This document shows positions 5,552-61,954 of a stretch of 64,000 nt of DNA, in pieces (the first letter of the stretch is position 1; each line of letters begins with the position of its first letter). Below the pieces are notes generated by a model. The model did not search any database. It saw only the letters and a program-made list of their open reading frames with translations, and had not been told where the DNA came from. The DNA lies in assembly GCA_964016885.1 (NCBI GenBank), contig OZ024740.1:400768001-400832000 (forward strand), in the 5' to 3' direction. The DNA is from Eledone cirrhosa. Taxonomy: Eukaryota. The position numbers and the translations under genes are program-made.

Positions 5552-5599
5552 AACGTTTGTAACTTGTATTGCGCCATTTTACTAACTGGCTTTAATTAT

Positions 5600-5663
<64 letters not shown>

Positions 5664-5711
5664 ATAATTAAGGCCAGTTAGTAAAATGGCGCCATACAAG
5701 TTACCAACATT
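5552..5711. repeat. inverted repeat (53-bp arms) flanking a (TA)n tract
   Basis: 5552-5604 is the reverse complement of 5659-5711 with a few mismatches. Confidence 0.9.
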
Positions 5712-6397
5712 TATATATATATGGACATATACATATATTTTCACATAAGTGCGTGTGCTTTTGCTTTTGAGCACTAGCTCTTGTGACAGCGCGTTTGAGT
5801 GTATGGAGTGCGCGCGCGTGTCTGTGTGCGTACGTGTCAGTATTACTAACAAGAAAATGTGTGAATGTGTCAGGACGCTTGAAATTATCTTCTATCTTAT
5901 CTTTTGAATCCTACAGATAAATACGGCCAGTCACGAACACACACATATGCGCACGCACACCCTCGCACCGGTAAACATGTTTTTTTTTTAAAACTTTTAA
6001 TACATAAATACGCTCATATATATACACCATATCGTATATGAATTCTTATATGAAATCATATATAGTTATATCTTTATGAGTATGTATATATATATATACA
6101 TATATTATATGAATGTATATACACACACACACAGACACCCATATATATATATGCATACATATATATTCAAATATACATACATATATACATAAAGATGAAT
6201 ATAGTCATATAAATATATATATATATATATCGTATATATCATATACATATATAAGTGTATATATATATACATATATATACATATATATACATATATATAC
6301 ATATAACATTATATGTATATGATATATATGATATATATATATATTTATACATATATATACATATAAAATTATATGTATATGATATATATGATATATA

Positions 6398-6464
<67 letters not shown>

Positions 6465-6931
6465 ATTAAATAAATGGAAAACTATATTTATAAAACCATA
6501 TTTATTTCATTATATATATTTCGGGGACATCATATTAACAATATGCTATGCCTTCATCAGACAAAATACAATATAAACAGTTTTATAGATAAATATATTC
6601 GACATACCGTAATAAACATCAACTTCATTTGAAGAGGTTCACTCTAGCAGTGAAAATACAGAGAGAAAGAAAGAGAGAGAGAAAAGAGGGAAATAAGAAA
6701 GAAAGAAAGACGAAACGAAGAAAAGGAAGAAAAAGAAGAAAAAGAAGAAATGCATGGGACAAAATAGAGAGATGGAAAAATAGATAAAGCGAAGAGCTTC
6801 ATGTAAAGAGACCGAAAGAGATATATATATATATATAGAGAGAGGAAATAGAGATAGATACATATATAAATATAGATATAGAAAAATTAGGTAGTGGGAG
6901 GTCATTTTGAGTAAGTGTATCAATGATGCAT

Positions 6932-6966
<35 letters not shown>

Positions 6967-7781
6967 GCTCAAGTATTAATGTAAGGGAGATATAGAGAGA
7001 TATAGAGAGATATAGAGAGAGAAAAATTTAAAAATAGCCAGACATATTCGAGGCGTAGAAAACCCTATGTTTTAATGTATTAGTATTTATAAAACTTACA
7101 CTATATTGTAAATATCAGTATTCCTGAATGAAACAAGTATTCACAATGCGTGAAAATTCATTATCTTATGTTTAGTTTTTTAAAAAATTCATATGTCTAT
7201 GTGAATCCAACTGATTCACTCCGCAAATTCAAAGTTACCGGAAAACATTCTCAATGTGGTATAAACATTTGAGCGTATTATTATTCTTGCGATTACTCTA
7301 CAAGATTATCTATCAAGCAGAAATAGAGAGCAGATTTCAATATACCAATCGAAAATATATATTATATTATAAGCAGAGATAACAATAATAATGATAATAA
7401 GTAAAAATATATAAAAATATAAAAATATAGAATAGAAAACTAAAAAAGAATATTACGAAAGAATATTACATAATAAAAATATTGCATATTAAAAATACTA
7501 TGTTTTAAAATTATTACGTATTAAAACTTTACATATAAAAATATTAAAAATAAAAATAAAATAAAATAAAAAATAAAAAATAAAAATATAAAAATATAAA
7601 AATATTATAGAATACTACAATACTAAAAGAATAAAAATAAAAATAAAAATAAAAATAAAAATAAAAATAAAAAATAAACCACAAAGAACAACCCTTCAAG
7701 GTTAATTGACAATATATTGCCAAGTTCACTACAAGACAAAGCCAAAAATTATCTATCAAATCACATCTAGCAAGGAATATC

Positions 7782-7833
<52 letters not shown>

Positions 7834-8277
7834 TTATGATGTCCAATAATGTCTACATATGTTCCTATATTTAATATATAAGTTTATCAAGTGTAAGGTT
7901 AATTCATAAAATTTGGAGCATCGGCTTTTAGGGTAGCTTAATTTTTCATGAGGAATGTTTAGATAAAATAAAAATAAAAAATAAAAAATAAAAATAAAAA
8001 TAAATACAATAAAATAAACAGTAAAAAGAGGGAATCAAAGATTTAGGAATCAAAAGATTTATCGGCTAGTTCTCATATAAATATAAATCAAACTAAATAT
8101 ACTACATTTTAAATTTAAATTTATATTTAAACGTTGAGTTTAATCTATGTTTGCAACAACTGAATAAATTTGTCCGTAGGTTAAGGGAATTTTTAGATTT
8201 TAGTATAAAGAATATCTCCTCTGCGCAGAGGTCACATGTCTCAGAGGATGAATTAAAAGGAATCCCTCTTGAGACTA

Positions 8278-8453
8278 TAGTCTCAAGAGGGATTCCTTTT
8301 AATTCATCCTCTGAGACATGTGACCTCTGCGCAGAGGAGATATTCTTTATACTAAAATCTAAAAATTCCCTTAACCTACGGACAAATTTATTCAGTTGTT
8401 GCAAACATAGATTAAACTCAACGTTTAAATATAAATTTAAATTTAAAATGTAG
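8278..8453 (+). pseudogene. C-terminus of a PLE GIY-YIG endonuclease ORF (mirror copy at 8102-8277, minus)
   Basis: IVSRGIPFNSSSETCDLCAEEIFFILKSKNSLNLRTNLFSCCKHR resembles the PLE C-terminal motif CxLCxxEKxxI...LNxRxE...CRH. The N-terminal part of the 100-aa ORF is just antisense read-through across the palindrome centre. Confidence 0.7.
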
Positions 8454-8721
8454 TATATTTAGTTTGATTTATATTTATATGAGAACTAGCCGATAAATCT
8501 TTTGATTCCTAAATCTTTGATTCCCTCTTTTTACTGTTTATTTTATTGTATTTATTTTTATTTTTATTTTTTATTTTTTATTTTTATTTTATCTAAACAT
8601 TCCTCATGAAAAATTAAGCTACCCTAAAAGCCGATGCTCCAAATTTTATGAATTAACCTTACACTTGATAAACTTATATATTAAATATAGGAACATATGT
8701 AGACATTATTGGACATCATAA

Positions 8722-8759
<38 letters not shown>

Positions 8760-9574
8760 GATATTCCTTGCTAGATGTGATTTGATAGATAATTTTTGGC
8801 TTTGTCTTGTAGTGAACTTGGCAATATATTGTCAATTAACCTTGAAGGGTTGTTCTTTGTGGTTTATTTTTTATTTTTATTTTTATTTTTATTTTTATTT
8901 TTATTTTTATTCTTTTAGTATTGTAGTATTCTATAATATTTTTATATTTTTATATTTTTATTTTTTATTTTTTATTTTATTTTATTTTTATTTTTAATAT
9001 TTTTATATGTAAAGTTTTAATACGTAATAATTTTAAAACATAGTATTTTTAATATGCAATATTTTTATTATGTAATATTCTTTCGTAATATTCTTTTTTA
9101 GTTTTCTATTCTATATTTTTATATTTTTATATATTTTTACTTATTATCATTATTATTGTTATCTCTGCTTATAATATAATATATATTTTCGATTGGTATA
9201 TTGAAATCTGCTCTCTATTTCTGCTTGATAGATAATCTTGTAGAGTAATCGCAAGAATAATAATACGCTCAAATGTTTATACCACATTGAGAATGTTTTC
9301 CGGTAACTTTGAATTTGCGGAGTGAATCAGTTGGATTCACATAGACATATGAATTTTTTAAAAAACTAAACATAAGATAATGAATTTTCACGCATTGTGA
9401 ATACTTGTTTCATTCAGGAATACTGATATTTACAATATAGTGTAAGTTTTATAAATACTAATACATTAAAACATAGGGTTTTCTACGCCTCGAATATGTC
9501 TGGCTATTTTTAAATTTTTCTCTCTCTATATCTCTCTATATCTCTCTATATCTCCCTTACATTAATACTTGAGC

Positions 9575-9609
<35 letters not shown>

Positions 9610-9972
9610 ATGCATCATTGATACACTTACTCAAAATGACCTCCCACTACCTAATTTTTCTATATCTATATTTATATATGTATCTATCTCTATTTCCTCT
9701 CTCTATATATATATATATATCTCTTTCGGTCTCTTTACATGAAGCTCTTCGCTTTATCTATTTTTCCATCTCTCTATTTTGTCCCATGCATTTCTTCTTT
9801 TTCTTCTTTTTCTTCCTTTTCTTCGTTTCGTCTTTCTTTCTTTCTTATTTCCCTCTTTTCTCTCTCTCTTTCTTTCTCTCTGTATTTTCACTGCTAGAGT
9901 GAACCTCTTCAAATGAAGTTGATGTTTATTACGGTATGTCGAATATATTTATCTATAAAACTGTTTATATTG

Positions 9973-10038
9973 TATTTTGTCTGATGAAGGCATAGCATAT
10001 TGTTAATATGATGTCCCCGAAATATATATAATGAAATA
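9973..10038 (+). ncRNA. type I hammerhead ribozyme motif (mirror at 6503-6568, minus)
   Basis: TATTTTGT-CTGATGA-[stem II with CATATT/AATATG and GGCAT/ATGTC]-GAAA-TATATA-TA-ATGAAATA; 8-bp stem I with 2 G-U pairs and palindromic loop III. Confidence 0.7.
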
Positions 10039-10496
10039 AATATGGTTTTATAAATATAGTTTTCCATTTATTTAATATTGTAAATATACTCCAAGTATTT
10101 GTCGAGTGCTTTTATATCAGTTATAAATATTTACTAGTTGTAACCCAACAATTTTAAATATAACTTTACACATATATATATATATATATATTTATACATA
10201 TATTATATGACTATATTTATCTTTATACACCCATTCTTTCATACACATGTACATACACCAACAAAGCCGTTAATTAAGAGGGACCCTCTAGAGAATAACT
10301 ATTTAAATCTTTTTTTATATAGTAAACTGAAATGTTTTTGTTAAATACTCTCAGCTGATTTCCCTTGTTGCTGGTTCTTTGTATATATTTATCTGGTAAT
10401 AAGTATTGTATTGTATTTCATTACTTCATTTGTTACTTAGGTTTCAGCTAGATATTTATATATTTAATCATATATTTTTAATCACTTATTGTTTAA

Positions 10497-13052: not shown

Positions 13053-13231
13053 ATAAGGTATGGTAAGATACCAGATGGACCATAACGCACCAGAATACGA
13101 GATACTTGGGGTAGTAGAGTGGATAATATGAAAAGATTCAGGACCCCGACGGCTGAGCTCCAGCCGTTTCGACAACTATATCTGTCGAAACTGCTGGAGC
13201 TCAGCCGTCGGCGTCCTGAATCTTTTCATAT
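13053..13231 (-). mobile_element. mini fold-back element, copy 1 (hairpin 13126-13231 plus ~70-bp tail)
   Basis: ATATGAAAAGATTCAGGACCCCGACGGCTGAGCTCCAGCCGTTTCGACA followed by its reverse complement; homologous to 41190-41384 and 47951-48145. Confidence 0.85.
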
Positions 13232-14988: not shown

Positions 14989-15038
14989 TAAACAACTGTA
15001 TATATGTGTATGAATAAATAAATGCATATGTATATGAA

Positions 15039-15118
<80 letters not shown>

Positions 15119-15168
15119 TTCATATACATATGCATTTATTTATTCATACACATATATACAGTTGTTTA
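14989..15168. repeat. perfect inverted repeat centred on (TA)n, followed by an 11-bp tandem repeat (AAAAGTTGTTT)
   Basis: TAAACAACTGTATATATGTGTATGAATAAATAAATGCATATG... is mirrored at 15112-15168. Confidence 0.9.
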
Positions 15169-15341: not shown

Positions 15342-15408
15342 TATTTTATTATACACATTTCAGAGGTACTGAGTTAACTTCAACAGTACGTCCTCATCAG
15401 ATAAAATA
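15342..15408 (-). ncRNA. type I hammerhead ribozyme motif
   Basis: Minus strand TATTTTAT-CTGATGA-GGAC[GTACTG...CAGTAC]CTCT-GAAA-TGTGTA-TA-ATAAAATA; perfect 8-bp stem I. Confidence 0.65.
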
Positions 15409-15510
15409 AGATGATGCATGACATACCCTGACATAGTAGATGGTTAAGATTCAGTCATAGTACTACCATGACTGAATTTTAACCTTATTTGTATATACAT
15501 ATATATATAC

Positions 15511-16892: not shown

Positions 16893-17938
16893 TGGAAAGT
16901 TATATTTAAATTGTTGTGTTACAACTAGTAAATATTTATAACTGATATAAAGGCACTCGACAAATATTTGGAGTATATTTACAATATTAAATAAATGGAA
17001 ACTATATTTATAAAACCATATTTATTTCATTATATATATTTCAGGGATAACATATTAACAATATGCTATGCCTTCCTCAGACAAAATACAATATAAACAG
17101 TTTTATAGATAAATAGATTCGACATACCGTAACAACATCTACTTGCATTTGAGAAGGTTGATTTGGTTGATTTGGTTGAGAAAAAAGGAAAGAAGGACAG
17201 AAAACGAAGAAAAAGAAAAAGAAGAAATGCATGGAACAAAATAGAGAGATGGAAAGATAGATAAAGAGAAGAACTTCATGTAAAGAAACAGAAAGAGATA
17301 TATATATATATAGAGAGAGGAAATAGAGATAGATACATATATAGACAGCTAGGTAGTGGGACGACTGTTGAATAACGTATCAATGATAAATTTATTTATT
17401 TATTTATTTAGCTCTAGTATTAATGTAAGGGAGATATATGGAGGGAAAACCAGCTGTTATATAGGGAGAGAAAAAATAAATAAATAAATTTATCATTCAT
17501 ACGTTATTCAACAGTCGTCCCACTACCTAGCTTTCTATATATGTATCTATCTCTATTTCCTCTCTCTATATATATATATATATCTTTCTGTTTCTTTACA
17601 TGAAGTTCTTCTCTTTATCTATCTTTCCATCTCTCTATTTTGTTCCATGCATTTCTTCTTTTTCTTTTTCTTCGTTTTCTGTCCTTCTTTCCTTTTTTCT
17701 CTCTTTTTCTCTCTTTCTCTCTCTCTTTCTTTCTCTCTGTGTACAATTTTGTCACAACCAAATCAACCTTCTCAAATGCAAGTAGATGTTGTTACGGTAT
17801 GTCGAATCTATTTATCTATAAAACTGTTTATATTGTTTTTTGTCTGAGGAAGGCATATCATATTGTTAATATGTTATCCCTGAAATATATATAATGAAAT
17901 AAATATGGTTTTATAAATATAGTTTCCATTTATTTAAT

Positions 17939-17944
<6 letters not shown>
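16893..17944 (-). mobile_element. second fold-back copy of the 6459-10172 PLE family
   Basis: Tail 16893-16979 is homologous to 10083-10172; arms 16980-17409 and 17475-17944 are inverted; hammerhead motif CTGAGGA...GAAA at 17836-17901 with a mirror in the left arm. Confidence 0.85.
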
Positions 17945-19042: not shown

Positions 19043-19707
19043 AATGTGTGGAATACATTTGTTTTATGTAGGCTTAAGTATGTGGATTGAGAAAGGGAGA
19101 GGACGATGGCGAAATTGTGGGCATGCTCATTTATTTAATGTCATGCATGCTTTCTATTACATGTTTGTGTGTGCCTTGTGTATTCTCTGAATGTGTGAAT
19201 GTATTTAATTTTATGCATACACTATAGATATGGAAACTCTTACGCGATGATATTTATGTTTTAGTTCATAGTTATTCGTAATTTAATGTCCTTTATGATA
19301 GCGCTTCATATGACAATGACGTTTCAATAATAATAATAAAATCATAAGAATGAGACCAAAAAATCTTTCGTTTGTTGGAAATGTACGCAGTGTCTCGTTC
19401 GTTCTTTTTTTTTTCATCGACCACAGAATCACGAAAGGCAAAACTATCATCGACGCGATTGAACCTCAGGGTATAGGCGCGGGAGCGAGTGCATGATAAA
19501 CAATGCAAAATGTAATGATTGAACTATTCCTTAATAATATTAAGAATGAATTATTTTGTAGAGCAATACTGGAAATTGAGGAAGGATAAATTCTGCCTCG
19601 GCTGGATTTGAACTTAGAATTTAAAATGATATAATTAAATACCACAAGCTATTCTTCGTGCAACTTTACCGATATTCATTTTACAATTATAGAAATATAA
19701 CTAATAA

Positions 19708-19890
19708 TTGTTTCTACTTTTTGGCACAAGGCCAGCAAATTACACAGTACATTACTGGTACTTTATTTTATCGACCCTGTAAGGATGAAAGGCAAAGTTA
19801 ACCTCGGCGGCATTTGAACTCAGACTATAAAGGGCGTAACTCTTTGCTGCATAGCATGGCGTCCAACCCTCTACCGATACTGCCACTCCA
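19708..19890 (-). mobile_element. SINE family A
   Basis: Reverse complement of the family A consensus; a more degraded copy follows at ~19895-20010. Confidence 0.85.
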
Positions 19891-21830: not shown

Positions 21831-23694
21831 AGCGTTATAAGGAACATCAGTTTTTCATTGGCCCTCCTCACAAGAAACAAGTTCGGTGTGTATGCAGTTG
21901 TTTTGTAATTATTCTGTGTATCCATGTGAATGTGTTTAGAGGATGCGGAACAGGAAAACAAGCATAAGCTTTGTTAGGAGATTCCAGAGTGGTTTTGATG
22001 ATGTGTTCTTTTTCTTAATATTGTTGCTACTAATGTTGGTGTTGCTGGTGCAGTTGTTGATTCTCCTTTCACTCTTGTTGATATTGTTGCTGCTGCCGGG
22101 GCGCGGGTACCGCTGATTTTGTACGCTGTTGGTTTCATGGATGTTGTCGAAGCCCTGGTTTTGGCAACAATGGAGCTCTGTTTCTGGCTTTATATCTCCA
22201 AACGTATCATAGACCAGTGTTCTCCTCGTGTTTCATTTACTTTCAGGAGGGTTTCACTACATTCCAGGCCCGCGCAGCTCAGGATTCACCAGATACCTAC
22301 CTCATGTGGGATTCCGGAAATTATGACACCTAAAGTCATTCTCATTAAATACGTATTTGTTGTTTTAATAGAGTATTATAGAGTGTCTGGTGGCAACAGC
22401 TTTACATTTAAAGAGCACTGGAATGACTACAAAATGCGTGACTTTTATGATGTTCTGTATGTCAAGCATTATTCTTGTGCTCTTTAAGTTTTGGCATGAA
22501 CCGGGGATTCGAACATGTGTGTACACGCGCATGTATATATCAATTTTTTTTTCTGATGCTAACAAAACCTCGATTTGATGGCTACATTGTTAACTCTTTT
22601 GATTAGTTTGGCCCCTTGTGTCAAATATAAGCGTTTATATGAAATATCCATGCTGAAATGTTCCGTTGCTTTTACTGCCGTTGATGAAAGTATATTTTTG
22701 TTTATATTGTTGTTGTTGCTTATGTTACTACTGTCACTGTGTCATTGATGTTCAGGTCCATGTCACTAGTGTTTTTGTTGTTATTTATGTTGTCAATGAT
22801 ATTTATGACTGTGCTTATTATTGTCGTTTTGGTACTAATGTCGTTGTTGTGTTTGGTTGTCTTTGATCTTGTCAATATGATACCGGTGACAGCGGTGACA
22901 ATGTTTTCAATTGCGGGAAATTAAATTCATACATTTCATTTATTTCCCGCATTTTGTTGTTGTCGCTGCTTTCTGGTAATTGAACTTTGGCTGTTCCATA
23001 TTCTGTCGAGCGGGCTGTACTTTTTAGCGGATAATTTCCTCTCGTTCACCATATCCTGGTTTGGTTGGTGAGTTTATGAAAAAGAAGCACACATTTATCC
23101 CTCAAGTGCTGAAGAAAAAGGAAAACGACCGAGATCCATTGGAAGAAGGCCGGTTTAACCACAGAGAATATTCTGACAAATATGTTTTACAAACATGTAA
23201 ATAAACATTAATTTTACTCCACCGATCTGTACCATGTCTCAAGGGACTCAATAATATTGATCATATTGGTGATAATGGTAATAATAATGATAATAATAAT
23301 AATAATGATAATAATAGTAATAATGATAATGAGGATAATGATAATAATTTCTTTATTGGACAAAAGTGCCTATATATAGGGAGAATGCAGTAGTCAGAGA
23401 CAGTCGGCGTTTACAAGAAAATCGAGTAAAAATATACAAAACAATAAAAATAAACAAAAGAATTACAGCAATGAAAATTCCCAAATAAGGGAGAGGGTCC
23501 AATCGGGGGCGACACAGGAACCCACCAATCCTGATCCAATATCCACACTGGTTAATATGTTGGCATCAGTGGCGTAGCTAGGGTAAACGGCGCCCAGGGC
23601 AAGCATCAAAATCCCCCCCCCCCCAATCAAAGAGTCAAGATCCACAAAGACGAAATTGCGGTAGAATTTATAATAAAAAAACAAAAAACGGTTA

Positions 23695-25340
23695 TAACTC
23701 TTGATTTTTCGAGCTTTTAATGAGGCAAACTGGTTGATAATTTTCTCGAAATAAGTTCGTTCAAACTCTTCGATTTCTACATTCAAAAGGGCGAGATCAG
23801 TCAGCCGTTGTTGGCCCATTGAGGTTCGCAAATACGAATGTATTAGCTTCAGCTTGCTGAACGACTTCTCGTAACTGGCAATTGAAATAGAAATCGCCAA
23901 CATTATCATGCTTTCCAGCATAGTTACGTCCCTTTACAATCTGAGTTCAAATCCCGCCGAGGTTGACTTTGCCTTTCATCCTTACGGGGTCGATAAAATA
24001 AAGTACCAGTAATGCACTGCGTAATTGCTGGCCTTGTGCCTAAAGTAGAAACAATTATTTGAATGCTGATTCGCAAATTGGGAAAAACACATTCATCGCC
24101 GTATTGTATGATGAGTTGGAGAAGTGCCTCCGGCTTTAAAATTGGGTCAGCTGTCCTAGTAGCTAGCAAAGATCGGCAGTCCAAGATTTCCTCATACAAT
24201 TGCTCTCTTTCGATGTCGGAGTTGTTTAGTTCCGCAAGACTGTTGTACCTTTATTTAAGGACAAGGTTATCAGGAGCAGCCAAATAAAATAGATAGTTGA
24301 CATCAAGAAGAAAGCCAAAACTTGAGTCTGTTTCCTTAAGTCGAATAAACCGTTCTACCATTTCTGTTTGAAGACGATTGAGTGAACTTTGCATTGCTCT
24401 CTCTATCTCTTTTTTGGCAGCCACCTCGACGTACTCAGTAAATTCGGTATTGGTTTGTCGTCATCCTCGCCTCCTCGGAAAATCGACATTCCATTTCTGG
24501 CAGAGGTCGAAGCCCATTTCAAGAGACTCGTGGATTAAGGATGTTCCTTCTTCTTTAAAATAAAGTTGAAGGGCTCCTATATCAGCTGCAGCATCGTGGA
24601 AATTCATTCTTGTATCTTGAAGTCTCTTTTGAACCCAGTCAATTCGTGAGAGAATCGTGTTCCAGAATCCAATCAAGTTCAGGAATTCATAACTCAGTAT
24701 CCGATTATGGAGATTACTGGCATCACTTCTACTCTCGCATGTCTCTGTTTCATCATCACTAATTTTTTCGAGAACTTGAACAATCAGCGTCAAATAATTC
24801 GCCACCGGTCTGACTGCGGTACATCTAGCACTCTACCGCGTGTCGGAAGGATATTTAACAACCACTGGAGCAACTTCTTTAAGGGCTTCCCATCGTCGTG
24901 TTGAACGAGAAAAAAAGTTCATCATAGCAGAATCATGTTTGGCTGCATGAAGACCAGCCAGATTAAGTGAATGGTTATCGCAATTAACGAAGTGAATCAA
25001 ATTCTTCTTCTCTCTCATTCTCTGCTGAACCCCACTGCGGTTCCCAGCCATTATGGCAGCATTGTCGTAGCACTCCGATCGACAGTTCTGCAGTGGTAGG
25101 TCATCTTTTTCTAGCTCTTTCACGATTGTTTCAACAAGGCTTGCGGCATCTTTTTTGATTACTTGAATGAATCCAAGAAAAGGTTCCCTCACAACCACCG
25201 TCTTCATATTGAAATCAACATCGACATATCGCACAACTTTTGACAGTTGTTCTCAGTGCGCCTGGTCAAGGGTCGAATCAATCAGCAGACCATAGTATCT
25301 TGCTTTTTGGATACGACTTAGTAAATTCTGACGAACTGTA
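23695..25340 (-). pseudogene. hAT transposase (ZMYM1/Tip100-like), frameshifted and 5'-deleted
   Basis: GLLIDST..., CYDNAAIMAG...GVQ, CDNHSLNL, STRRW, and the dimerisation motif SxEKSFSKLKLIHSYLRTSMGQQRLTDLALL. Confidence 0.9.
23922..24058 (+). mobile_element. 5'-truncated SINE family A inserted in the hAT transposase
   Basis: B-box and central domain; splits the transposase between FPNLRISIQI and MLAISISIASYEKSFS. Confidence 0.85.
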
Positions 25341-25974
25341 TTATAGAAGAAAACATTGAACCATCTAAACTGGAGTCAAATTGAATTCCTAATAGAAGCT
25401 ATTCGATCCTATCTGGCCATTTGGATTATGATACTTTTTCTATACGTCTTATGTACCAGATGTAAAAGACAAACTACTCTGTTTTGTTAACCAGCTTCAT
25501 AATTATAATTTTGCAATTGGTCATTGCAATGCATTGCTAAAAATAGCGCCTGCGTGTCCACCAGTTGCACGTCCAAAACTACGTCCCTTCAGTCAGTGTG
25601 GGGGTGGGGTGGGGGCGGTTTTGTGAGGTCAAATCAGACATCTGCTCTGTCTAGTGCACTAGACATGGCGTGGAAGTCGGCTATCAAGAAATCACATGCT
25701 TCATTTTTGGCTTATATTTAAAAAAATGATAAACACGACATGGATGTAAATCGATCTAGGTCGAAATTGCGCCCCCCTAAATATGGCGCCCGTGGCATGT
25801 GCCCTGTTTGCCACACCCTAGCTACGCCACTGGTTGGCATTATAAAACCATAACAAGTGGTACAATCATCATTGCAACTGAAGGAGAATATGTAACGATT
25901 CTGTGAAACTTTCCCGTACATGCAGACATAACAAACAACACTAACAGACAGGATATTGTTGTAAAAGAACAAAA

Positions 25975-26132
25975 TAATTGTTTCTACTTTTGGCACAATG
26001 CCAGCAATTACCTCAGTGCATTACTGTTGCTTTATTTTATCGACCTCGTAAGGATGAAAGGCAAAGTTAACCTCGGCAGGATTTGCTGGAAGGCATGGCA
26101 TCCGACCCTCTACCGATACTGTCAATCCACCA
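25975..26132 (-). mobile_element. SINE family A, internally deleted
   Basis: Reverse complement of the consensus. Confidence 0.8.
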
Positions 26133-28995: not shown

Positions 28996-29534
28996 GTGCG
29001 TGCATACAAAACGAAGAATCTATAATCAGACGAACCAGTGGGGGAGCATCTACGTTGTTGCTGGACATTCTAAAAATAAGTTAAATTCTTTTCCAATATA
29101 ACCTATTCCCAAACAACAAAATATTGAAATACTCAAAGTATTGGCTTGGAATCGGCATAAAAAACAACCAATGACAATAGAAACAATTAAAACATGTTTT
29201 GAAACATATTTAGATTTATTTCATTGAAGCTTCGAGAATTATGAAAAGCTTCGAGAATTATGAAAAAAATATATTCAAAGCAACTAAAACTAAACAAAAT
29301 ATGTGAAATTAAACAGCTATACTATATATAAATATGTACTTTGAATTTAGAGATTATTTCAGTCATATTGATTTGTACTTTTGATACTGTAACACAAACA
29401 CTGTTGGGTTGAAAATAATTGATTAAATCCAACCTCATTAATTGACTAGTCTTTATTTTAATGAATACGTAAAGGAGAAATTGCAAAGTGCACATGAGCA
29501 GATTTGGAACTCAGAACATGAATATCTAAAGTAA

Positions 29535-29725
29535 ATAATTGTTTCTACTTTTGGCACAAGGCCAGGAATTAACCAGTACATTACTGGTATTTTATTTTAT
29601 CGACCCCGTAAGGATGAAAGGCAAAGTTAACCTCGGTGGGATTTGAACTCAGAATGGCAAGGGCCGTAACTCTATGCGTCAAAGCATGGCGTCCGACCCT
29701 CTACAGATACTGCCAATCCACACCA
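29535..29725 (-). mobile_element. SINE family A, full length
   Basis: Reverse complement of the consensus including A and B boxes. Confidence 0.9.
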
Positions 29726-37453: not shown

Positions 37454-37650
37454 AGGTGGTGGATTGGCAATATCGGTAGAGGGTCAGACGCCATGGTTTG
37501 ATGCATAGAGTTACGGCCCTTGCCATTCTGAGTTCAAATCCCACCGAGGTTAACTTTGCCTTTCATCCTTATGGGGGCGATAAAATAAAGTACCAGTAAT
37601 GCACTGGATAATTGCTGGCCTTGTGCCAAAAGTAGAAATAAGTATTATTA
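37454..37650 (+). mobile_element. SINE family A, full length
   Basis: GGTGGATTGGCAATATCGG, GAGTTCAAATCC, central domain and tail. Confidence 0.9.
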
Positions 37651-40200: not shown

Positions 40201-40392
40201 TATATATATGCGTGAGTGTGTGTGTATGTGTGTAGTTGGATGGACACACAGTTAGACAAACATACACATGTGATACAGCAGCAAATACCTACATCCACAT
40301 GTAGGTAGTTGCTGCTGTATCACATGTGTAAGTTTGTCTAACTGTGTGTTCATCCAACTACACACATACGCACACACTCACACATATATATA
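40201..40392. repeat. ~94-bp-arm hairpin with a 4-nt loop
   Basis: ...GCAGCAAATACCTACAT-CCAC-ATGTAGGTAGTTGCTGC...; few mismatches. Confidence 0.9.
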
Positions 40393-41189: not shown

Positions 41190-41194
<5 letters not shown>

Positions 41195-41381
41195 AACGAG
41201 TAGGACCCCGACGGCTGAGCTCAAGCCGTTTCGACGGCTAATTCTAGACAGAATTAGCCGTCGAAACGGCTTGAGCTCAGCTGTCGGGGTCCTACTCGTT
41301 CCTATTACCCACTCTACTACCCTAAGTATTGAGTACGTTGGTGCGTTAAGGTCCACCTGGTTCCTTATCACATTTCCTTCG

Positions 41382-41384
<3 letters not shown>
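41190..41384 (+). mobile_element. mini fold-back element, copy 2 (hairpin 41190-41305 plus tail)
   Basis: Near-perfect 56-bp stem with a 4-nt loop; tail homologous to copies 1 and 3; (TA)n on both sides. Confidence 0.9.
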
Positions 41385-43147: not shown

Positions 43148-43225
<78 letters not shown>

Positions 43226-43228
43226 ATA

Positions 43229-44663
43229 TCCAGCTCTCCTTACATCCAGATCTGTCAACCGCTCTCTCCACACTTCTGATCTTCTCTATCAGTGCCTCCT
43301 CTCTGACCTCAGTGTAAGCGGTACAGAGCTCTTCCCTCATCACCTCCACAGTCTCCATCCTCTCCTCCGTAGGATCAGCATAGAATTGGTCCCTGGCAGC
43401 TTTCAGGTGTTCTCTGGCTGCACACACTTTTGGGTTTGCAGAGCTGAGGTGCTTCCCTTTGTTCTTTTTCCTCGGCACCAGTGTTTCACTTGCTTTCGCC
43501 ACTGTATTGGTGAAATGCCCGTACCTCCTCGTCACACTCTCCTCAGTCCATCCAATCTCTCTCTCCTCTGACTCTCCACACAGAGCACTAAACCTGTTTC
43601 TCACTTCCACTGTGAACCTCTCCTGTAGCTTATCATCTTCCTTGAAAGCTCCCCAGTCATAGATTGTTCTCCGGGGCTGAGCCTTGCTCTTTCTTAAGCT
43701 CACGCGGACCTCACTCATAACAAGCCGGTGGTCACTACCCAGTGTACTGAAATAGCTGTATGGTTCCGTGTTCAGAACACTATTCCGCCACTTTTTCCTC
43801 ACCAGAATGAAATCAATCTGGGACTTGGACAGGTGCATATCTGAGATGTAGGTCCACATCTTCCCCAGATTCTCTCTAAACCTTAGGTTGGTCGCCATCA
43901 AGTTCGCCTCCAGCAGGGTGTCTCTCAGTAGTCTTCCATTTCGGTTGGTGTTGTTATGGAAGTACCAGCAAGGATCTTCACTGCCCTCCTTACTCAGATG
44001 TGCATTGAAGTCCCCTAAAACAAGCAGGATATTGTGTGCCTGAGTGGTGTTGACAGCTCTACACACCTCCTCATGGAACTCCTCGGCATTCACATCACTG
44101 TCCCCCTCGGTTGGACTATAGGCTGAGATGACTGTCAGTCTTGGGTTTCCATTGAAGGTCACCCTCAACACTCGCGGGGAGATAGGCATTATTTCCCTCA
44201 CCAAAAGATTGGTTTTTGCACTGAACACAAAACCCACTCCTCCCACTGCAGCATTTGTTGTGTTCTTCACTGCCGATGTAGTGATGAGCTGGCTCTTCCT
44301 CCCGATCATCACACTCCTCACAGGCTCATCGTGTAGAATCCTGTGTTCTTCGATTGCAAGTATCTGTATACCACTCTCCTCGAACAGATGTCCCAACTCC
44401 TCTCTCTTCTCCAGCGTTCGAATAGTCCTCACATTCAAAGTGCCCATTTTGATGGCTCTCCTGCAGGACAAAACTGCATTCTTTATATTTGTCTCAGAGA
44501 CAGCTGATCCATCATCCACTGGCCCTCTCTGTGGCTCTAAGCCAGCAGAGTCATAACGACCAGGCTGCTCCTTGATAGTGTAATTAGGGGCTCTAACCCT
44601 AGTGCTGTTAGATCGACTCTCCATATTTCTTTTCAATGGCTGACAATACCTTACCGGCGCCAC
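43229..44663 (-). CDS. RTE LINE ORF, N-terminal half (APE endonuclease), truncated by inversion
   Basis: Open 483-aa frame with GTLNVRT, AIEEHR, SAYSPT, LGDFNA, QIDFIL and SDHRLV; ends in (TA)n. Confidence 0.9.
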
Positions 44664-44837
44664 TCGAATAAGGTAGTTATTTAACCCATAAATGGAGCCC
44701 TAACAGGTACTACCACCCCGGGCCAGGGCAGACCTGGGAGTCATGACAACTAAGGGGTAACTCCACATTCCCCACATCTCCTGAACTCCCGAACTGGAGC
44801 CTTGCCACTGGATGTAGTTTAATGTCATACCCAGGCC
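44664..44837 (-). mobile_element. RTE LINE 5' UTR (inverted segment)
   Basis: GC-rich sequence upstream of the APE ORF on the minus strand, ending at the AGGCCT junction. Confidence 0.7.
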
Positions 44838-45905
44838 TTTGATTCTGTGGACCGTTACTGCCTGATGAAGATCTTACAGGCTTATTGAATCCCCAAGAGG
44901 ATAGTGGACCTGATATCACTGCTCTACACCAACACCAAAGCCCAAGTCATTACACCTGATGGGATGACAGAGTTCTTTGAGATACTGGCTGGAGTGCTCC
45001 AGGGAGATACATTGGCTCCCTACCTTTTTGTCATCGTAGTGGACTATTGTATGCGCCTTGCACTGGAGAAACACCAGGACTCTGGCTTTACTGTAGCACC
45101 GGCTCAGAGCAGGAGAGTTGGGGCGAAAAAGGTATCGGATGCTGAATTTGCCGACGACATAGTTTTGGTGACAAATACAGTGAAGGAGGCAGAGGATTTG
45201 ATGCGGGAGGTTGAGACTGTGTCGATGAGTGTGGGGCTGAGAATGAATGAGACTGAAACAAAATATCTGGTAGAGAATGTTGAGAAGCCAGAGGGGATCA
45301 CTAATGTAGGCGGGAAGCCGCTGGAATTGGTTGAGGACTTCCTGTATTTGGGAGCAAAGATTGGGAATACGGAAGATGATGTGGTTGAGAGGAAGAGCAA
45401 GGCCTGGGCGGCGTGTCACAGCTTGAGATCGGTGTGGAAGTCGGACCTTCGTAGAGACCTGAAAATCCACCTCTTCATTGCTGTAGTGGAGTCTGTGCTG
45501 CTGTATGGGTCTGAGACTTGGACACTGACCACGAGACTCACTCAGATGGTGGATGGGTGCTACACGAGAATGCTGAGGATGGCTCTGAACATTAATCAGT
45601 ATACACTGAGGATGAAAAACTCAGAGCTGTATGGGAGCATCTCAAAAGTCAGCTCAAAAGTGACACAGAGGAGACTGAGGTTGGCTGGACATGCTCACCG
45701 ACATCCAGAGTTGACATTGCACTCAGTGCTCCTTTGGGAGCCCCTACATGGACACACTAGAAGAGGAAGACCAAGGTTAACATATGTTGATGCCCTAAGG
45801 ACAGACACTGGTCTGTTGGAGATGCAGGATATGGCAGCGCTAATGAGGGACAGAGACCGCTGGAGAGAACTCGTCCATGGATCTCGGGAATTTTACCCGC
45901 CTTAG
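44835..45905 (+). pseudogene. RTE LINE reverse transcriptase, C-terminal half
   Basis: AFDSVDR (one in-frame TGA at 44886), GVLQGDTLAPYLF, FADD, FLYLG, LLYGSETW, RLRLAGH, RGRPR; (TAGA)-like tail at 45903-45920. Confidence 0.92.
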
Positions 45906-46062: not shown

Positions 46063-46460
46063 ATATTGTTATACTTTGGGAGGGTCATGTTGCCAATAAG
46101 AAACACATGCACCTACTGCTTTCACTTCAATTTATTATAATAAATTTATAATTAATTTATAAATTTATAAATATCTGGTTGGTTGGTTGGTTCCACAACC
46201 AGATAGTTGTTTATATATTGTCATACTTCTTTCGTCACACACTCTGTGACCTCTTTAGTGACTGGGGATTCCTTTCTTTGTTTCTGTGCCTCTCCTTTGT
46301 TCTTTCCTACGCCATTTTGTTTCTGTGTGTGTGTTGTGTGCTTAGTCTGCGCATGCGCCACATCCGGGTGTCTGTGTGTGTTTATGTTCATTTATTTATT
46401 TGTTTATTTACATGTTACTGGTTGGTTGTTTGTTCTATGTGTGTGTGTGTTTTCATTTAT
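46063..46460 (-). mobile_element. solo, diverged pseudo-LTR of the 41433-43155 PLE family
   Basis: Homologous to 41490-41900; hammerhead core mutated (CTAAAGA). Confidence 0.85.
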
Positions 46461-47950: not shown

Positions 47951-48137
47951 TAACAAAGGAATTGTGGTAAGGAACCAGATGGACCATAACGCACCAGAGT
48001 ACTCAATACTTAGGGTAGTAGAGTGGGAAATAGGAAAAAGTATGACCCCGATGGCAGAGCTCAAGCCGTTTCGACGGCTATTTCTAGTCCAGAAATAGCC
48101 GTAAAACGGTTTGATCTCTGCCGTCGGGGTCATACTT

Positions 48138-48145
<8 letters not shown>
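47951..48145 (-). mobile_element. mini fold-back element, copy 3 (tail plus hairpin 48030-48145)
   Basis: Homologous to copies 1 and 2; (TA)n flanks. Confidence 0.85.
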
Positions 48146-50571: not shown

Positions 50572-50611
<40 letters not shown>

Positions 50612-50612
<1 letters not shown>

Positions 50613-51175
50613 ACTGTTTCTACTTTAGGCACAAGGCCAGCAATTACCCAGTGCATTACTGGTACTTTATTTTATCGACCCCGTAAGGATGAAAGGCAAA
50701 GTTAACCTCGTTAATAATATATATAAAGTTAATAATATAATAATAATGGTTTCTGGTATAGGCAGAAGGCTAGTAATTTGGGGGGAGGGGAAAGTCGATT
50801 AAATCGACCCCAGTTACTGGTGATTTATTTTATCGACCCCGTACGGACGAAAGGCAAAGTTAACCTCGCCGGGATTTGAACTCAGAATGTAAATGGCCGT
50901 AACTCTATGCTGCAAAGCCCTCTACCGATACTGCTAATCCACAATAATAATAATAGTGGTTTCTTATATAGGCACAAGGCCAGAAATTTTAAGGGAGGGG
51001 AAAGTCGATTAAATCGACCCCAATACATTACTGGTGAAAGTCGATTTTATCGACCCCGTAAGGATGAAAGTCAAAGCTAACCTCGGCGGGAATTGAACTC
51101 AGAAAGTAAAGGAGCATAACCTATGCCGCAGAACATGTTATCCGACGCTCTACCGATACTGTCAATCCACCACCC
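50612..51175 (-). mobile_element. three head-to-tail SINE family A copies
   Basis: ~50612-50712 (truncated), ~50745-50942 and ~50957-51175. Confidence 0.85.
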
Positions 51176-51191
51176 TTTATGATAATAATGC

Positions 51192-53460
51192 TTTCTTTAT
51201 TAACGACACAAATATTTACAAAAAGTACATTAAGGACAGCACAACAGTACAGGACGGTACAAATACGGGTTTCTGCGTCTATAAAAAATAAACAACAAAG
51301 GATGTAACAAAAAACGGGTAGGTACCCAATAGGGTAGGAGGGGACTTCCGTCATGGAGAAAGCCCTCAAAAAGCGACGGTGACCTGACCACAAGGGTATG
51401 TGCCCTCTCCCAGTTTTCCACATCCAACCTAAAGGCGCATACTCTAAGCAGGCCCATTCATTCGAGCCATCCTTGCCTCAGTCACCCATCTTTTAACAAC
51501 TGCTGGGAAGGGAGCACATCCCTCTCCATCCTGATTTTCCTTTTCAAATGAAATTCTAAAAAGTTAATCAGGACTTCGCCGAAGAGGAACGTGCTCATCT
51601 TCAGATCTTTCAAACGTGTCCATAATACGATCTCTTTCACCATGACAACCTGGCAGATAACAACTACATGCCCTTAACGGTTAAATAAAGGTGGTGGGAT
51701 GATTTTTACGATGGACTCAGCTGATAGCCGGATCCGGCCTACACGCAACAACAGGTACGCGACATAAACCCACAAGTCAGCAATGCTCGGATACACAACG
51801 AATACGTGCAGGACGGTTTCGTTGCCATTAGTGCATTTCGAACAGGTTCGGCTGACGGCACATCAATGCCTATAGAATTTCTGCCGAACTGGCAAAGCTC
51901 CTCAGTACCACTGCCAAGCCAGTGCCGTTGTCGCTCTTACCTTCCTCTAACCCTCTATAGAAAGCCAAGGTGGAGTCTTCACCGATCGTAGTGCACGATT
52001 GGCTGAGGGCTGTGAGCACCTGAAGACATTCCAGTCTACAAGTGCTACGTCTCCGCCTTCGCTTGAACGAGGGGTGTAGTTCCATCAAGGAGACGAGCTG
52101 GGTAAAACACGTCTAGAAAATGGTGACCACACCTGTCCATCGATAAGGAAGAGTTGGAGATGTCGTAGCCTCAGCTCATGTTTGCCATGTACGCTCGACC
52201 TTTCAAGGACAGCAACTTTCAGTCCACTTCTGGGTAGATAGGCCAGCCTGCTCGTCAACTCGTCCCAGTTTTTGTCCATCTGGAGATCTTGAGAAAACCA
52301 GAACCCTAGTATTTTAACCGGTCCGTCCATCCAGCACCCGACAACACTGTTGGACGGAATGGACATGTTTCTCCAGATGCCGACATACACCGACTTTCCT
52401 TGTTAATCTTTGCTCCCGTCATCACCTCGTATTCCTTGAGAGCATACATACATACATACGTACATACATACATACATACATACATACATACATACATACA
52501 TACATACATACATACATACATACATACATACATACAGGATGGCTGCAAACTCTGCTAAGAGTATTGCAATCGCTTGTCAGATTATCGAGTTTGGTGCACT
52601 TTTAGGCTACCGCCAGCCACACATACCTATAACATATCCTGAACAAGCAATGTATATATGTACCTACATACATATATACATTTCAATGTGTTTGGTGCTG
52701 GACACCACTATGGTGACGTCGTCAGCCTAAGCTGACACGGTTCTGGCGCATTAGAGAGTCAATTCATACAACAATGACGAGAGTGGTCAACCTTGGCGGA
52801 CCGAGTGCATGAAGTTGAACGGTTCCGAAAGGTGACCATTCACTCTCAGCACAGAGCAGATATCTCTGTGCATAGCAGCGCTCCAGTGTCTGAAGACGGG
52901 ACCAAAACAGGCCACCCTCAGGACCACCACCAGATATCGATCGATGTTCAAACCTATCAAAACCTTTTGACTGATCTAAAATGATCAAGGCTCCAACCGT
53001 ACCTGATGTATCGATGATGTGGAAGTTTTCGTGGATGGACTGTCTGGAATGGCGCATGTCTGCGCCTCTACGCCCAGAGTCCTGATGACATGCGTCAACC
53101 TTGTCGCTAAAACCTTGGCCAAAATCTTAAACTCTGCGTTCAGAAGAGATATGGGCCTGATATTATCTACTTAGTCCACCTTGTTCGGGTCCTTTCACAG
53201 CAGCGTCACCATTCCTCGGCTCGCAGAGCTGGGAATGCTCCCGACTTACTGCCTGTGACAGTAGATGTCTGCCAATAGGTCACCGAACAAGTCTGGAATG
53301 TGCATATAAAGCTCGTAGGACAGACCATAAAAACATGGTGATTTACACATCGTAAAGCTACTCATTACCTCCCGTACTTCAGCGGCTCTTATCGGCTTTT
53401 CACAATAGCCCTACGGGTCTTTGTCTGCAGTAGGTTGGGACCAGAGTGAGCTCTTGAGTG
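51192..53460 (-). mobile_element. degenerate L1/Tx1-clade LINE (RT and C-terminal region)
   Basis: Minus-strand IRPISLLNAEFKILAKVLATRL, GALIILDQSKGFDRFEH, ADDVT, GAKINKES, VKILGFWF, ETVLHVF; interrupted by (TACA)n and an insert at ~52443-52700. Confidence 0.85.
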
Positions 53461-54732: not shown

Positions 54733-54786
54733 GTCACACACGCATACCTATATATATTAGTTCTTATTATTTAGATTAGAAAAGGG

Positions 54787-55010
54787 AGGTGGATTGGCAG
54801 TATCAGTGGGGAGTCGGACACCATGCTTTGCAGTCGGACACCATGAGTTACAGCCCTTTATGATCTGAGTTCAAATCCCGCCGATGTTAACTTTGCCTTT
54901 CATCCTTACGGGGTCGATAAAATAAAGTACCAGTAACGTACTGGGGTCGATTTAATCGACTTTCCCCTCCCCTCAATCACTGGCCTTGTGCCTATACTAG
55001 AAATCATTAT
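54787..55010 (+). mobile_element. SINE family A (long-tail variant)
   Basis: A and B boxes, central domain, GGGGTCGATTTAATCGAC segment. Confidence 0.88.
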
Positions 55011-55197
55011 TTAGATTAGAAAAATAACATTCACAAGTCCCATGATTGTTAACTTTTCGAGGCCTTCACTATCCCATGATTAGTAGCATGATCACACTAG
55101 TGGCGTTTTGGTTATGCGATAAGATGGTTTCGTGAAAGATCATGGAAGTGTTAGGAAATTATGGTCCTCTGATTTTTAATTTCTCAACCATTGAAAG

Positions 55198-55460: not shown

Positions 55461-55595
55461 GAGAATATGCCATATTGCTTAAATATTAAACAAATGTTTA
55501 GTTAAGCATAAACGCCCAGGAAAATGCCACATTTTTCGTCTCAAGTAAACGCAGTAGACACACATATCTTCCAAATTCTTCTATTTGCAAAATAT

Positions 55596-55945
55596 TCCCA
55601 CGTAGACATTTTACTCACCAAATGCGTGATAAAAGCCAACTTCATGTGATAATGTCTCCACACATGACATGAAATATATTGACATTAACATCAATGACAT
55701 CAATGTTATTAACAACACATTCTATTTTAGGCCCAAGGTCGATGCAATTGCTTGACTACCAATCAAACACTTGCATCGATATATTGATTTTCTCATTCTC
55801 TCAAAACCTGATCTTGGGACTAAAATAGAATTTATCATTAGTATTATTGATGTTAATGTCAATATTTTTGATGTCATGTGTACAGATATCATCACATGAA
55901 GATGGAATTTATCACGCATTTGGTGAATAAAATGTCTACGTGGGA
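55596..55945. repeat. MITE-like inverted repeat (~100-bp arms, ~150-bp spacer)
   Basis: 55596-55695 versus 55846-55945. Confidence 0.8.
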
Positions 55946-56875
55946 TTATTAAAAATATGTTTCCCTATGATTTAACGCTTCTGCGAATCTAAAGCCGTTA
56001 TAATAACAACAACAATTCCCAATTAAAGCAAAAGACCAGTAAATTGAGGGTACGGTAAACACCCACTTACTTTTAACGACAGTGAAATGATGAAAATCGA
56101 AGTTGACGTCAGCAGGATTTGAACTCAGAACATAAAAAACAGTAACTACACAGTAACGACACTAAACTCTTTGTCCGACTCTTTTAAAGATACTGCCAGC
56201 CCACCAATCTTATCATAATAATAATACTAGCGTCAATATAGTGAATTATTGCAGGTTTGTCTTTGTTTATCAATTGGAAATTATGGTTAAACAAATATAA
56301 AAGCTAAATAATGCCAGACACGAGCGTGAATTTCGATGCTACATAGATAATCTTTACAGACAATATATATGTGTGTATGCGTGCGTGTGCATGTATGTGC
56401 ATTACTGTAAAAAATTGACATCAGAACACATGCATATGAGTGAGTTTTGCTTTGGTTGTGCATAAGCCCGTATATTTTATTGAGGTATGTTATTACAACC
56501 AGTTTTCAGGTCTCTGCATATTCTCTGCAAATTAAACATTGCCGAATGCGTTTCGTCGGAAGGTCGTTCACGGGTGAAATTGTTGGAGCTAAACATGTTA
56601 TATTATATATTCTCCCCATCTGTACAAGTATTTGTCTTAGTAGAAGTCACATGCCAAATTCATTAACTTATAACATGCGGGGAGACTTAAGGTTATTATG
56701 CTTTATAAATAGAAAATAAATAAATCTATATGTATTTTATTATTCTTTTCTTCAGGGAGAGGGTGTTTCAAGTTAAGTATATATAAGAAACAGAGAAAAA
56801 TTAGATTCTAGTAGGTTTTGTATTTTCTTGAACACACACATGCACGCACACAATCATACACACACACACACACGT

Positions 56876-57845: not shown

Positions 57846-58646
57846 AGTATTATACGTACATACATATATGTATACAGACGTACAGTAGTATGTATATACA
57901 TACATGCACACATATATATATGTACGTATGGGTTTAATGAACATTTATTATATTGCTTGGTTTGTTTGTAAACAAACAACCCGAATTAAGCCGTACAGTG
58001 TTCGGCAACCATCGTTGCCCTTTTGTTTAACACTGACAAAGAACGATGAACTAGTTTCTAGCTTATTAGCTGTCATCAGCACCGTATACCTTCCTTTCAG
58101 TCGATTCAACATTTGAAAGTATATACTTTCCTTATGCATATTAACGGCTGAGCAGCCTAATTTGCATATCGAATGAGTTAGTCGGCCGGGTGTACCGAAA
58201 CCGATAAATGGAAAAAATTAAATTTCATTTCTCGCTCTTAGTACGGCTGATACTTAAATATAAGTATGTATACGTACATACATATATGTATACAGACGTA
58301 CAGTAGTATGCATATACCTACACACATACACACATATATATATGTACGTATAGGTTTACCGAATATTTATTATAATGCTCGGTTTGTTTGTCAGTGTTGA
58401 ACAGTGTTGAACAAAAGGGCAACGATGGTTGCCGAACACTGTACGGCTTAATTTGGGCTGTTTGTTTACAAACAAACCGAGCATTATAATAAATGTTCGG
58501 TAAACCCATACGTACATATATATATGTGTGCATGTATGTATGTATATACATACTACTGTACGTCTGTTTACAAATATGTATATGTACGTATACATACTTA
58601 TTTAAGTATCAGCCTTACTAAGAGTGAGAAATGAAATTTCATTTTT

Positions 58647-58740: not shown

Positions 58741-59153
58741 TAAATATGTACACATTCTACACGCAGAAATACGCGAGCATTGCAAAGGTTTCTCTGTGGC
58801 TGCTTTATGTGCTAGAAATAACAATAACATTTCAAACACACACATATTGGATGATGTAATCATGTGGGTACACTAGTAAACAGGGTCAGTAGGGCTGAAA
58901 CGTTTTGATTGTATGATTGACTGATTAAGACAGACTTAGGTTAAGTAAAACCAACGCAATTACATACATATAAATGTATTTTACTGGATGAACAGTTAGA
59001 AAAGAATAGATTGTCATAAGGAATTCATTTTTTTTCTCAATGTATATAATTACATATATATACACACACATACATCCATACACGCATGCATATTAATATA
59101 CGCATATACACAGACATACATACATCTATACATGCAAACACATAAATAAGAAC

Positions 59154-61663
<2,510 letters not shown>

Positions 61664-61954
61664 TACATACATATATACATAAATATATATATATATACAT
61701 ATATACACACATATATACACATATATACATATATATACATATACATATACATATATATATACATATATACACATATATATATATACATATATATATACAT
61801 ATATACATATTCACATATATACATACATATATATATACACATATACATATATATATATGCCCATATATACATACATATATATATACAGATATATACACAC
61901 ATATATATATATACACACATATATACATACATACATATATATATACATATATAC

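Follow-up and report, generated by a model that had tools for sequence, protein, structure and literature searches.

Inverted Hydra-clade Penelope-like element ends in a spacerless 3.6-kb palindrome of Eledone cirrhosa

How does a palindrome of more than three kilobases, with identical arms and nothing between them, come to stand in an animal genome? The question is raised by a 64,000-nucleotide stretch of Eledone cirrhosa DNA (GenBank assembly GCA_964016885.1, contig OZ024740.1, positions 400,768,001 to 400,832,000 of the forward strand; the whole stretch is called the window here, and coordinates are numbered from its first letter). The element in question, designated P1, comprises a palindrome at 6459-10082 and a tail at 10083-10171 (Table 1). 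P1 is very probably one genuine insertion of a Hydra-clade Penelope-like element (PLE) into a (TA)n microsatellite, in which two 5'-truncated 3' ends lie head to head. As its sequence reads, it is the product of a known class of PLE event with a routine layout; what is unusual is the 1.8-kb length of the arms, the zero spacer, the ~89-nt tail and the 1.5-kb 3' region.

Anatomy and parentage of the palindrome

Walking outward base by base from 8277/8278, 480 bases pair, a homopolymer mismatch intervenes, and pairing is then exact to 6459/10082, giving a palindrome of 3,624 bp with a spacer of zero. The arms measure 1,819 nt (left) and 1,805 nt (right) and are identical once the homopolymer run is collapsed: a 14-nt difference between an A48 and a T34 tract is the only one, and the 1,805 paired sites hold no substitution (95% upper bound 0.17%). 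The original prediction, made from the letters alone, of a spacerless and near-perfect palindrome with this centre and this sole difference is borne out by the walk. Its interval, 6459 to 10172, is palindromic as far as 10082; the last ~90 nt (10083-10171) are unpaired and constitute a tail of the right arm. P1 is the sole structure in the inverted-repeat census of the window with perfect arms of this length, and the only other copy of 8454-9500 in the window is the mirror arm.

Table 1. Positions of P1, its parts and flanks, and its older paralog in the window
Feature	Position	Strand	Remarks
Flank 24-mer	6189..6212	+	inverted twin beyond the other P1 end at 10203-10226, 23/24 identical
(TA)n array, left half of inferred target site	6401..6458		from sequence and array list
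P1 left arm	6459..8277	-	5'-truncated PLE 3' end, sense on minus strand, tailless; end ...AATATTGTA running into (TA)n
Type I hammerhead motif, left arm	6503..6568	-	core starts 6560, predicted cleavage site 6511; own descriptor
A48 run	7784..7831	+	mirror of T34
Mirror copy of endonuclease C-terminal fragment	8102..8278	-	includes stop codon; tblastn
P1 centre	8271..8284		GAGACTA|TAGTCTC, axis 8277/8278, inside the Ile codon that opens the homologous stretch
PLE GIY-YIG endonuclease C-terminus, Hydra clade	8277..8453	+	last 58 codons and stop; CxxC..E..N..CxH
P1 right arm, paired part	8278..10082	+	sense on plus strand
Long AT-rich 3' untranslated stretch	8454..9980	+	1,527 nt, stop codon to hammerhead core
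T34 run	8724..8757	+	mirror of A48
Type I hammerhead motif, right arm	9973..10038	+	core 9981, predicted cleavage site 10030; own descriptor
Unpaired PLE tail, right arm only	10083..10171	+	~89 nt; outer end uncertain by ~4 nt
(AT)n, right half of inferred target site	10172..10191		from sequence
Inverted twin of flank 24-mer	10203..10226	-	pairs with 6189-6212
P2, older paralog of the P1 family	16894..17944		inverted arms ~0.45 kb, spacer ~63 nt, tail ~86 nt on left arm, a hammerhead per arm

The reading frame that leads outward from the centre yields IVSRGIPFNSSSETCDLCAEEIFFILKSKNSLNLRTNLFSCCKHR and reaches a stop 13 codons further on. It carries CDLC-AEE...SLN-LRT...CKH, 14 residues ahead of the stop, which is the Hydra-type C-terminal motif; CxxC and CxH flanking a conserved E and N are among the features described for the Hydra clade, and the Hydra rows of Fig. 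S7 in that account align with the P1 fragment by eye (PMC8557442). A full HMMER search (phmmer) with the fragment gave 11 matches, 9 of them real homologues that align over the motif at 39-59% identity; the other two (P0003 and P0011) were repeat-driven and were dropped. A word-index search with the 57-residue fragment found no match where the full HMMER search succeeded, and a search of the PDB gave a single weak and unrelated match (E=0.015). A profile built from the homologues found 81 longer proteins, and the pattern W..CxLCxxE..NxR..CxH is present in 64 of 90 homologues. In the seven long homologues that were inspected, DKT and Y.DD are present throughout and RWK in two, and the printed C-termini are those of a GIY-YIG domain without internal cysteines. 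(The Hydra reverse transcriptase (RT), the CxCX5C linker, RWK/DKT and the GIY-YIG core lacking CCHH are truncated away from P1, and were looked at in the long homologues only.)

The position of the fold-back point relative to this coding sequence is given by tblastn with full-length homologues: for six of the eight matching proteins homology begins at 8274-8277 (plus strand) and 8278-8281 (minus strand), within one codon of the centre, and the remaining two extend weakly across it. Besides the P1 fragment, tblastn with the long homologues finds no further Hydra coding piece in the window, and no RT. Phmmer, profile and tblastn searches thus uphold what had been proposed, that the palindrome is built from the 3' end of a PLE and folds back inside the C-terminus of the PLE endonuclease; a hammerhead had also been proposed for each arm, and a type I motif is found in both, on opposite strands, by a descriptor written after the motif had been seen and undetected by Rfam.

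That descriptor matches six times in the window (two matches in P1, two in P2 and two in other elements) and not at all in 20 shuffles. In the right-arm motif stem I has 8 bp, stem II has 11 of 14 positions paired, and stem III closes a palindromic UAUAUA. Stem II opens with an A.C pair in P1 and with A-U in P2; a G-C pair is likewise missing at this place from several Hydra hammerhead rows in the literature (PMC8557442, File S2). Rfam yields no match of any kind in the window at the gathering score and no hammerhead at E<=10, and places a chance match to SraG (E=3) over the motif. The minimum free energy structure of the P1 hammerhead monomer differs from the hammerhead fold and is no better than that of shuffled sequence (z 0.78); hammerheads with palindromic stem III loop closure are described as working as dimers, with low activity (PMC4209133).

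Comparison with the Hydra-clade PLEs of PMC8557442 (Hydra-1_Amil, Hydra-2_Amil, Hydra-1_Obim, Penelope-13_HM) shows P1 to be alike in its C-terminal CxxC-E...N-CxH, in a hammerhead near the 3' end and in its (TA)n target. Moreover, Penelope-13_HM carries an attached 5'-truncated inverted copy of 966 nt. The two copies in P1 are equal in length, so that nothing lies between them, and in this P1 differs from the Hydra-clade examples. It also differs from them in having no RT, in a hammerhead that by eye is unlike every Hydra row of File S2, and in the 1.7 kb that follow its stop codon, where whole listed elements mostly span 2-2.7 kb; a parent element longer than most of those listed is therefore implied. 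On its sequence, the P1 family is apparently a Hydra-clade family not yet listed. P1 itself is dead as an autonomous element because RT and most of the endonuclease are missing, and no host function is demonstrated for it.

Outer ends, target and sister copies

Both ends of P1, and both ends of P2, run into (TA)n. Beyond the (TA)n on either side of P1 stands one member of an inverted 24-mer pair, and the 24-mer has no match in the window other than its twin when up to 3 substitutions are allowed. (A first null for this pair, in which 0 of 288 reached the score and the maximum was 42 against 43, was redone by tiling, with the outcome given further on.) Strongly inverted flanks are also found at two of 37 (TA)n arrays (5605-5658 and 15045-15112). 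Together these observations suggest, on sequence grounds, that the two flanks of P1 were once a single site. At these two arrays the inverted duplications, with ~55 nt of flank on each side of (TA)n, occupy 5552-5711 and 14989-15168 and possibly record repair of nicks or cruciform breaks. The P1 tail has no significant fold (z -0.14 and -0.50).

The structure recurs in the window at smaller scale. P2 is 9.3% diverged from P1, and its arms are 1.9% apart, with one arm-to-arm indel of ~45 nt. One P2 arm has the same tail as P1, and the other shares its end nucleotide with the left arm of P1 before passing into (TA)n. The P2 centre sets the end of an A-run beside a (TTTA)n tract ~63 nt back, and tail and spacer are on the same arm. 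P3 (41434-43155) belongs to a second PLE family with an inverted pseudo-long terminal repeat (pLTR); it is frameshifted, and a Neptune-like Cys linker is seen by eye. Its arms are 1.9% apart, its 710-nt spacer contains a Pfam GIY-YIG match (E=4e-4) and belongs to the tailless arm, and its ~56-nt tail is on the short arm. (A solo arm of the P3 family at 46066-46458 ends at the tailless site of P3.) P5 (57843-58650) is a compound of tandem and inverted PLE ends with a hammerhead core at 58079 on the minus strand, one outer end tailless and the other tailed. Thus, in each of the four inverted structures with independent PLE evidence (P1, P2, P3 and P5) a tail is present at one outer end and absent from the other.

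Three short copies (13061-13227, 41193-41382 and 47953-48141) form one family of asymmetric palindromes, each with a ~70-80-nt one-sided tail. Their centre is a natural hairpin directly before GAAA that resembles hammerhead stem II; a PLE origin for them, from a hammerhead-like 3' half lacking the CUGANGA half, may be inferred from sequence. At 15350-15484, next to a long (TA)n array, stand an isolated hammerhead motif (core 15400, minus strand) and a palindrome of 43 nt, probably another PLE end.

Arms group by copy in both families tested: over ~155 nt the arms of P1 and P2 show 0 and 3 substitutions within copies and 6-8 between copies, and the short family shows 1, 3 and 4 within copies and 4-11 between. 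This implies that the inversion is made anew at each insertion, or else that it is maintained by conversion.

Formation of the palindrome

An inverted 5'-truncated copy with a one-sided tail is typical of PLEs (PMC8557442, PMC3846280), and the origin of PLE inverted ends is called unresolved in PMC8557442 and PMC11167929. The Penelope elements of Adineta vaga (PMC3846280) and Poseidon PAc of Anolis (PMC11167929) share with P1 the head-to-head 5'-truncated inverted copy, the palindrome at the junction, the tail at one end and the AT-rich target; in addition, Pen1_Av has a spacer of 0.9-1.5 kb ahead of its 3' pLTR (PMC3846280). They belong to a different clade and their tails are 30-40 nt long compared with ~89 nt; the A. 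vaga elements have ~0.2-kb pLTRs and junction palindromes of 18-38 bp, where P1 has 1.8-kb arms and zero spacer.

The balance tips modestly toward a route with two primers, in which both strands of (TA)n prime cDNA and two cDNAs are joined head to head. The GIY-YIG endonuclease would nick both strands of the symmetric target, and both 3'-OH ends would prime reverse transcription, the distal start generating the tailed arm that ends at 10171 and a start ~89 nt further in, on the other strand, generating the tailless arm that ends at 6459. Both cDNAs would copy one RNA, so that the arms would be identical at birth, and would halt at the same nucleotide in endonuclease sequence; their ends might then be joined by way of the self-complementary AT/TATA at the centre, or as blunt ends, with host repair filling in. 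In vitro precedent for the nicking and priming steps comes solely from the different PLE Poseidon, and anatomy, family, target, tail and repetition in paralogs are what is seen in the window. The Poseidon protein, which is predicted to be a dimer, cuts and extends both strands of AT-rich target DNA and begins its cDNA at either of two internal positions of the RNA, between which the tail lies, with no requirement for hammerhead cleavage (PMC11167929).

LINE-1 twin priming also starts cDNA synthesis from both target strands on one RNA and gives rise to a 5' inversion; the parts copied do not overlap and no palindrome results, whereas in P1 each of the two primers would begin close to the 3' end, and one stretch would be copied twice. 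Non-LTR retrozymes have a type I hammerhead related to PLE pLTRs, as P1 has, and consist of directly repeated units in tandem, every one with its own hammerhead (bioRxiv 10.64898/2026.07.22.740005); P1 is an inverted pair with a coding remnant. Its hammerheads on opposite strands and its lack of tandem direct units rule out its being such a retrozyme.

Several observations weigh against the insertion as read here, or against the two-primer route to it. There is no full-length copy of the P1 family in the window (tblastn) from which the native sequence upstream of the centre could be read. Pfam is blind to the P1 fragment and calls GIY-YIG in one of nine long homologues scanned. A target-site duplication is unreadable inside (TA)n. 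In the tiled control for the flank 24-mer, 2 of 1,172 alignments equalled the score, by way of low-complexity matches, so that the pair is evidence of only moderate weight. The ~89-nt tail exceeds the 30-40 nt usually described for PLEs (PMC8557442). The count of one tail per structure comes from four cases, a small sample, and omits two symmetric palindromes, at 40212-40381 and 55591-55950, because nothing links either to PLEs. (The former is a palindrome of 170 bp (93%) and the latter of 360 bp (~74%).) In vitro, the start site is alike on both strands (PMC11167929); a strict one-tail asymmetry is therefore not predicted there, and is an addition of the present analysis. Finally, the two cDNAs must be assumed to end within about 2 nt of each other.

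The principal competitor, unlikely as it is overall, dispenses with the second primer: a single tail-primed cDNA would stall, fold at GAC-TATA-GTC, copy itself and, ~89 nt before regaining its start, be joined to the other target end. Arms made in this way are identical automatically, and palindromes at inverted junctions have been interpreted as self-priming (PMC3846280). The centre of P2, with its A-run end, its nearby (TTTA)n and its tail and spacer sharing one arm, fits such folding, as do the natural hairpins at the centres of the three short copies. What speaks against it is P3, whose tail is on the short arm and whose spacer belongs to the tailless arm, an arrangement that a self-copying cDNA cannot produce and that needs two cDNAs. 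In P1, moreover, folding at the centre requires a native Thr (ACT) after the conserved Trp, and Thr is found there in one of 64 homologues (weak evidence, the proteins being distant). Hairpin junctions can form between two cDNAs as well. Joining of two separately primed cDNAs would cover P1, P2 and P3.

That the palindrome was made by library preparation or assembly, fold-back reads having short-cut, or polishing homogenised, a real inverted PLE whose spacer was longer or whose arms were unequal, or two loci having been mis-joined, is distinctly improbable. Fold-back chimeras and cross-mapped polishing likewise leave no spacer and no substitutions, and the solitary place of P1 in the inverted-repeat census leans the same way. 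PLE structures of this kind are described as troubling assemblies (PMC8557442). A pure fold-back read, however, would mirror the flank also and cannot supply a tail; both the tail and the tailless end of P1 match P2, an independent paralog, and the two sides of P1 return to different sequence with the inverted 24-mer pair across them. Because the layout of P1 is the published signature of PLE insertion, a plain fold-back artefact is unlikely.

Less credible still is a later rearrangement, by which a single-arm fragment or a spaced inverted copy would have been made perfect by template switching, spacer deletion or gene conversion, leaving P1 perhaps older than it looks. Conversion between arms is known in palindromes, and (TA)n-centred inverted duplications do exist in the window (the two of 37 arrays). 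Yet the left end of P1 is the family's own tailless site, common to P2, which a host accident would not choose; the usual effect of rearrangement is to introduce asymmetry at the centre, not to abolish it; and the 1.9% drift of the arms of P2 and P3 indicates that conversion is incomplete at neighbouring copies. The (TA)n flanks and long inverted arms do look like those of a palindromic non-autonomous unit, akin to a miniature inverted-repeat transposable element or a fold-back DNA element, which is mobilized in one piece and has only picked up PLE sequence, but the ends of P1 are asymmetric and not symmetric terminal inverted repeats, P1 and P2 share outer ends while differing in centre and length, and arms group by copy rather than by side, all of which makes this the least probable reading.

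Age, neighbourhood and significance

The palindrome had been judged very recent on account of its instability. The absence of substitutions from 1,805 sites (<=0.17%), compared with 1.9% in P2 and P3, makes recency plausible; instability by itself is no proof, since inverted copies with arm divergence of 1.9-12% persist in the window, these survivors having arms shorter than those of P1, and spacers. If arms are identical at birth and unconverted, P1 would be at least 10 times younger than P2 and P3. Arm identity thus suggests youth, which conversion or polishing could mimic. Within the tiny sample that the window affords, no inverted PLE copy is longer or less diverged than P1, which fits loss of spacerless copies over time. 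P1 is spacerless, as are the members of the most nuclease-sensitive class of yeast Alu inverted repeats (PMC8053094); these are engineered constructs in yeast, and by analogy P1 may be fragile too.

The surroundings of P1 hold other mobile sequences. A long interspersed element beside P3 in (TA)n (43230-45905; an AP endonuclease at 43212-44699, minus strand, and an RT at 44889-45905, plus strand) looks 5'-inverted, that is, twin-primed. Inverted repeats at 1-136 and 2320-2455, 97% identical, ~2.2 kb apart and cut by the window start, may mark the two termini of a DNA transposon. Decayed remnants of hAT-type transposase (Dimer_Tnp_hAT, DUF4371) lie at 23466-25252 (minus strand), three ~600-nt direct repeats, 95-96% identical with (TACA)n/(TA)n tracts between them, at 59040-61664, and a 432-codon open frame that runs off the window at 62704-63999 (plus strand), by eye the N-terminal part of a non-LTR retrotransposon RT, with no significant Pfam match. 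A dispersed ~190-nt family resembling short interspersed elements is found in both orientations (1815-1992, 19703-19890, 23907-24060, 25972-26130, 29533-29721, 37455-37647, 50608-51197 and 54781-55011). A host-gene search of 98 open reading frames of the window (97 of 120 listed complex frames of >=70 aa, and 219-932) gave only hAT-type matches and two weak ones and no host exon; short exons would escape it.

The proposal that P1, if transcribed, would give double-stranded RNA as a potential ADAR substrate draws no support from the window: the frames scanned hold no host exon, and the arms of P1 point outward, so that a hairpin RNA would require read-through from outside or an antisense promoter. 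An antisense promoter in Penelope elements is raised only as a possibility in PMC3846280. A sigma-70 scan was at chance level (this is a bacterial promoter model, inapplicable to an animal genome). As the P1 hammerheads are on opposite strands, RNA that runs through the locus would contain a single ribozyme base-paired to its complement. Should copies of this kind lie in transcribed introns, they would supply perfect double-stranded RNA; hyper-editing has been linked to such structures, and a lizard Penelope is named as heavily edited (PMC5625713).

A literature search confined to titles and abstract openings, with thin coverage of subscription journals and hence no proof of absence, turned up no report of a kilobase-scale spacerless PLE palindrome. 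The layout of PLE insertions is already known, and the P1 locus alone is consequently a modest finding; its value is as an extreme and apparently young example of PLE inverted insertion. If centre sequence, tail side and arm identity were tallied for the P1 family across the genome, the counts would separate two-primer joining from self-copying of one cDNA without bench work, and would show how fast spacerless kilobase palindromes vanish or gain central asymmetry in an animal germline. It is tentatively conceivable, although rather doubtful, that the gap-free centre and the strict single tail are the trace of a mechanism new for PLEs, in which a protein dimer uses both strands of (TA)n to prime two cDNAs on a single RNA, one from each of its two start sites, extends them to a common end point and fuses them, and that PLEs then continually seed perfect kilobase palindromes in this genome that are tolerated long enough to be assembled. 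Were this true, the palindromes would constitute a dated decay series, with arm divergence from 0% to ~12% within 64 kb, and, where read through, ideal substrates in the form of double-stranded RNA.

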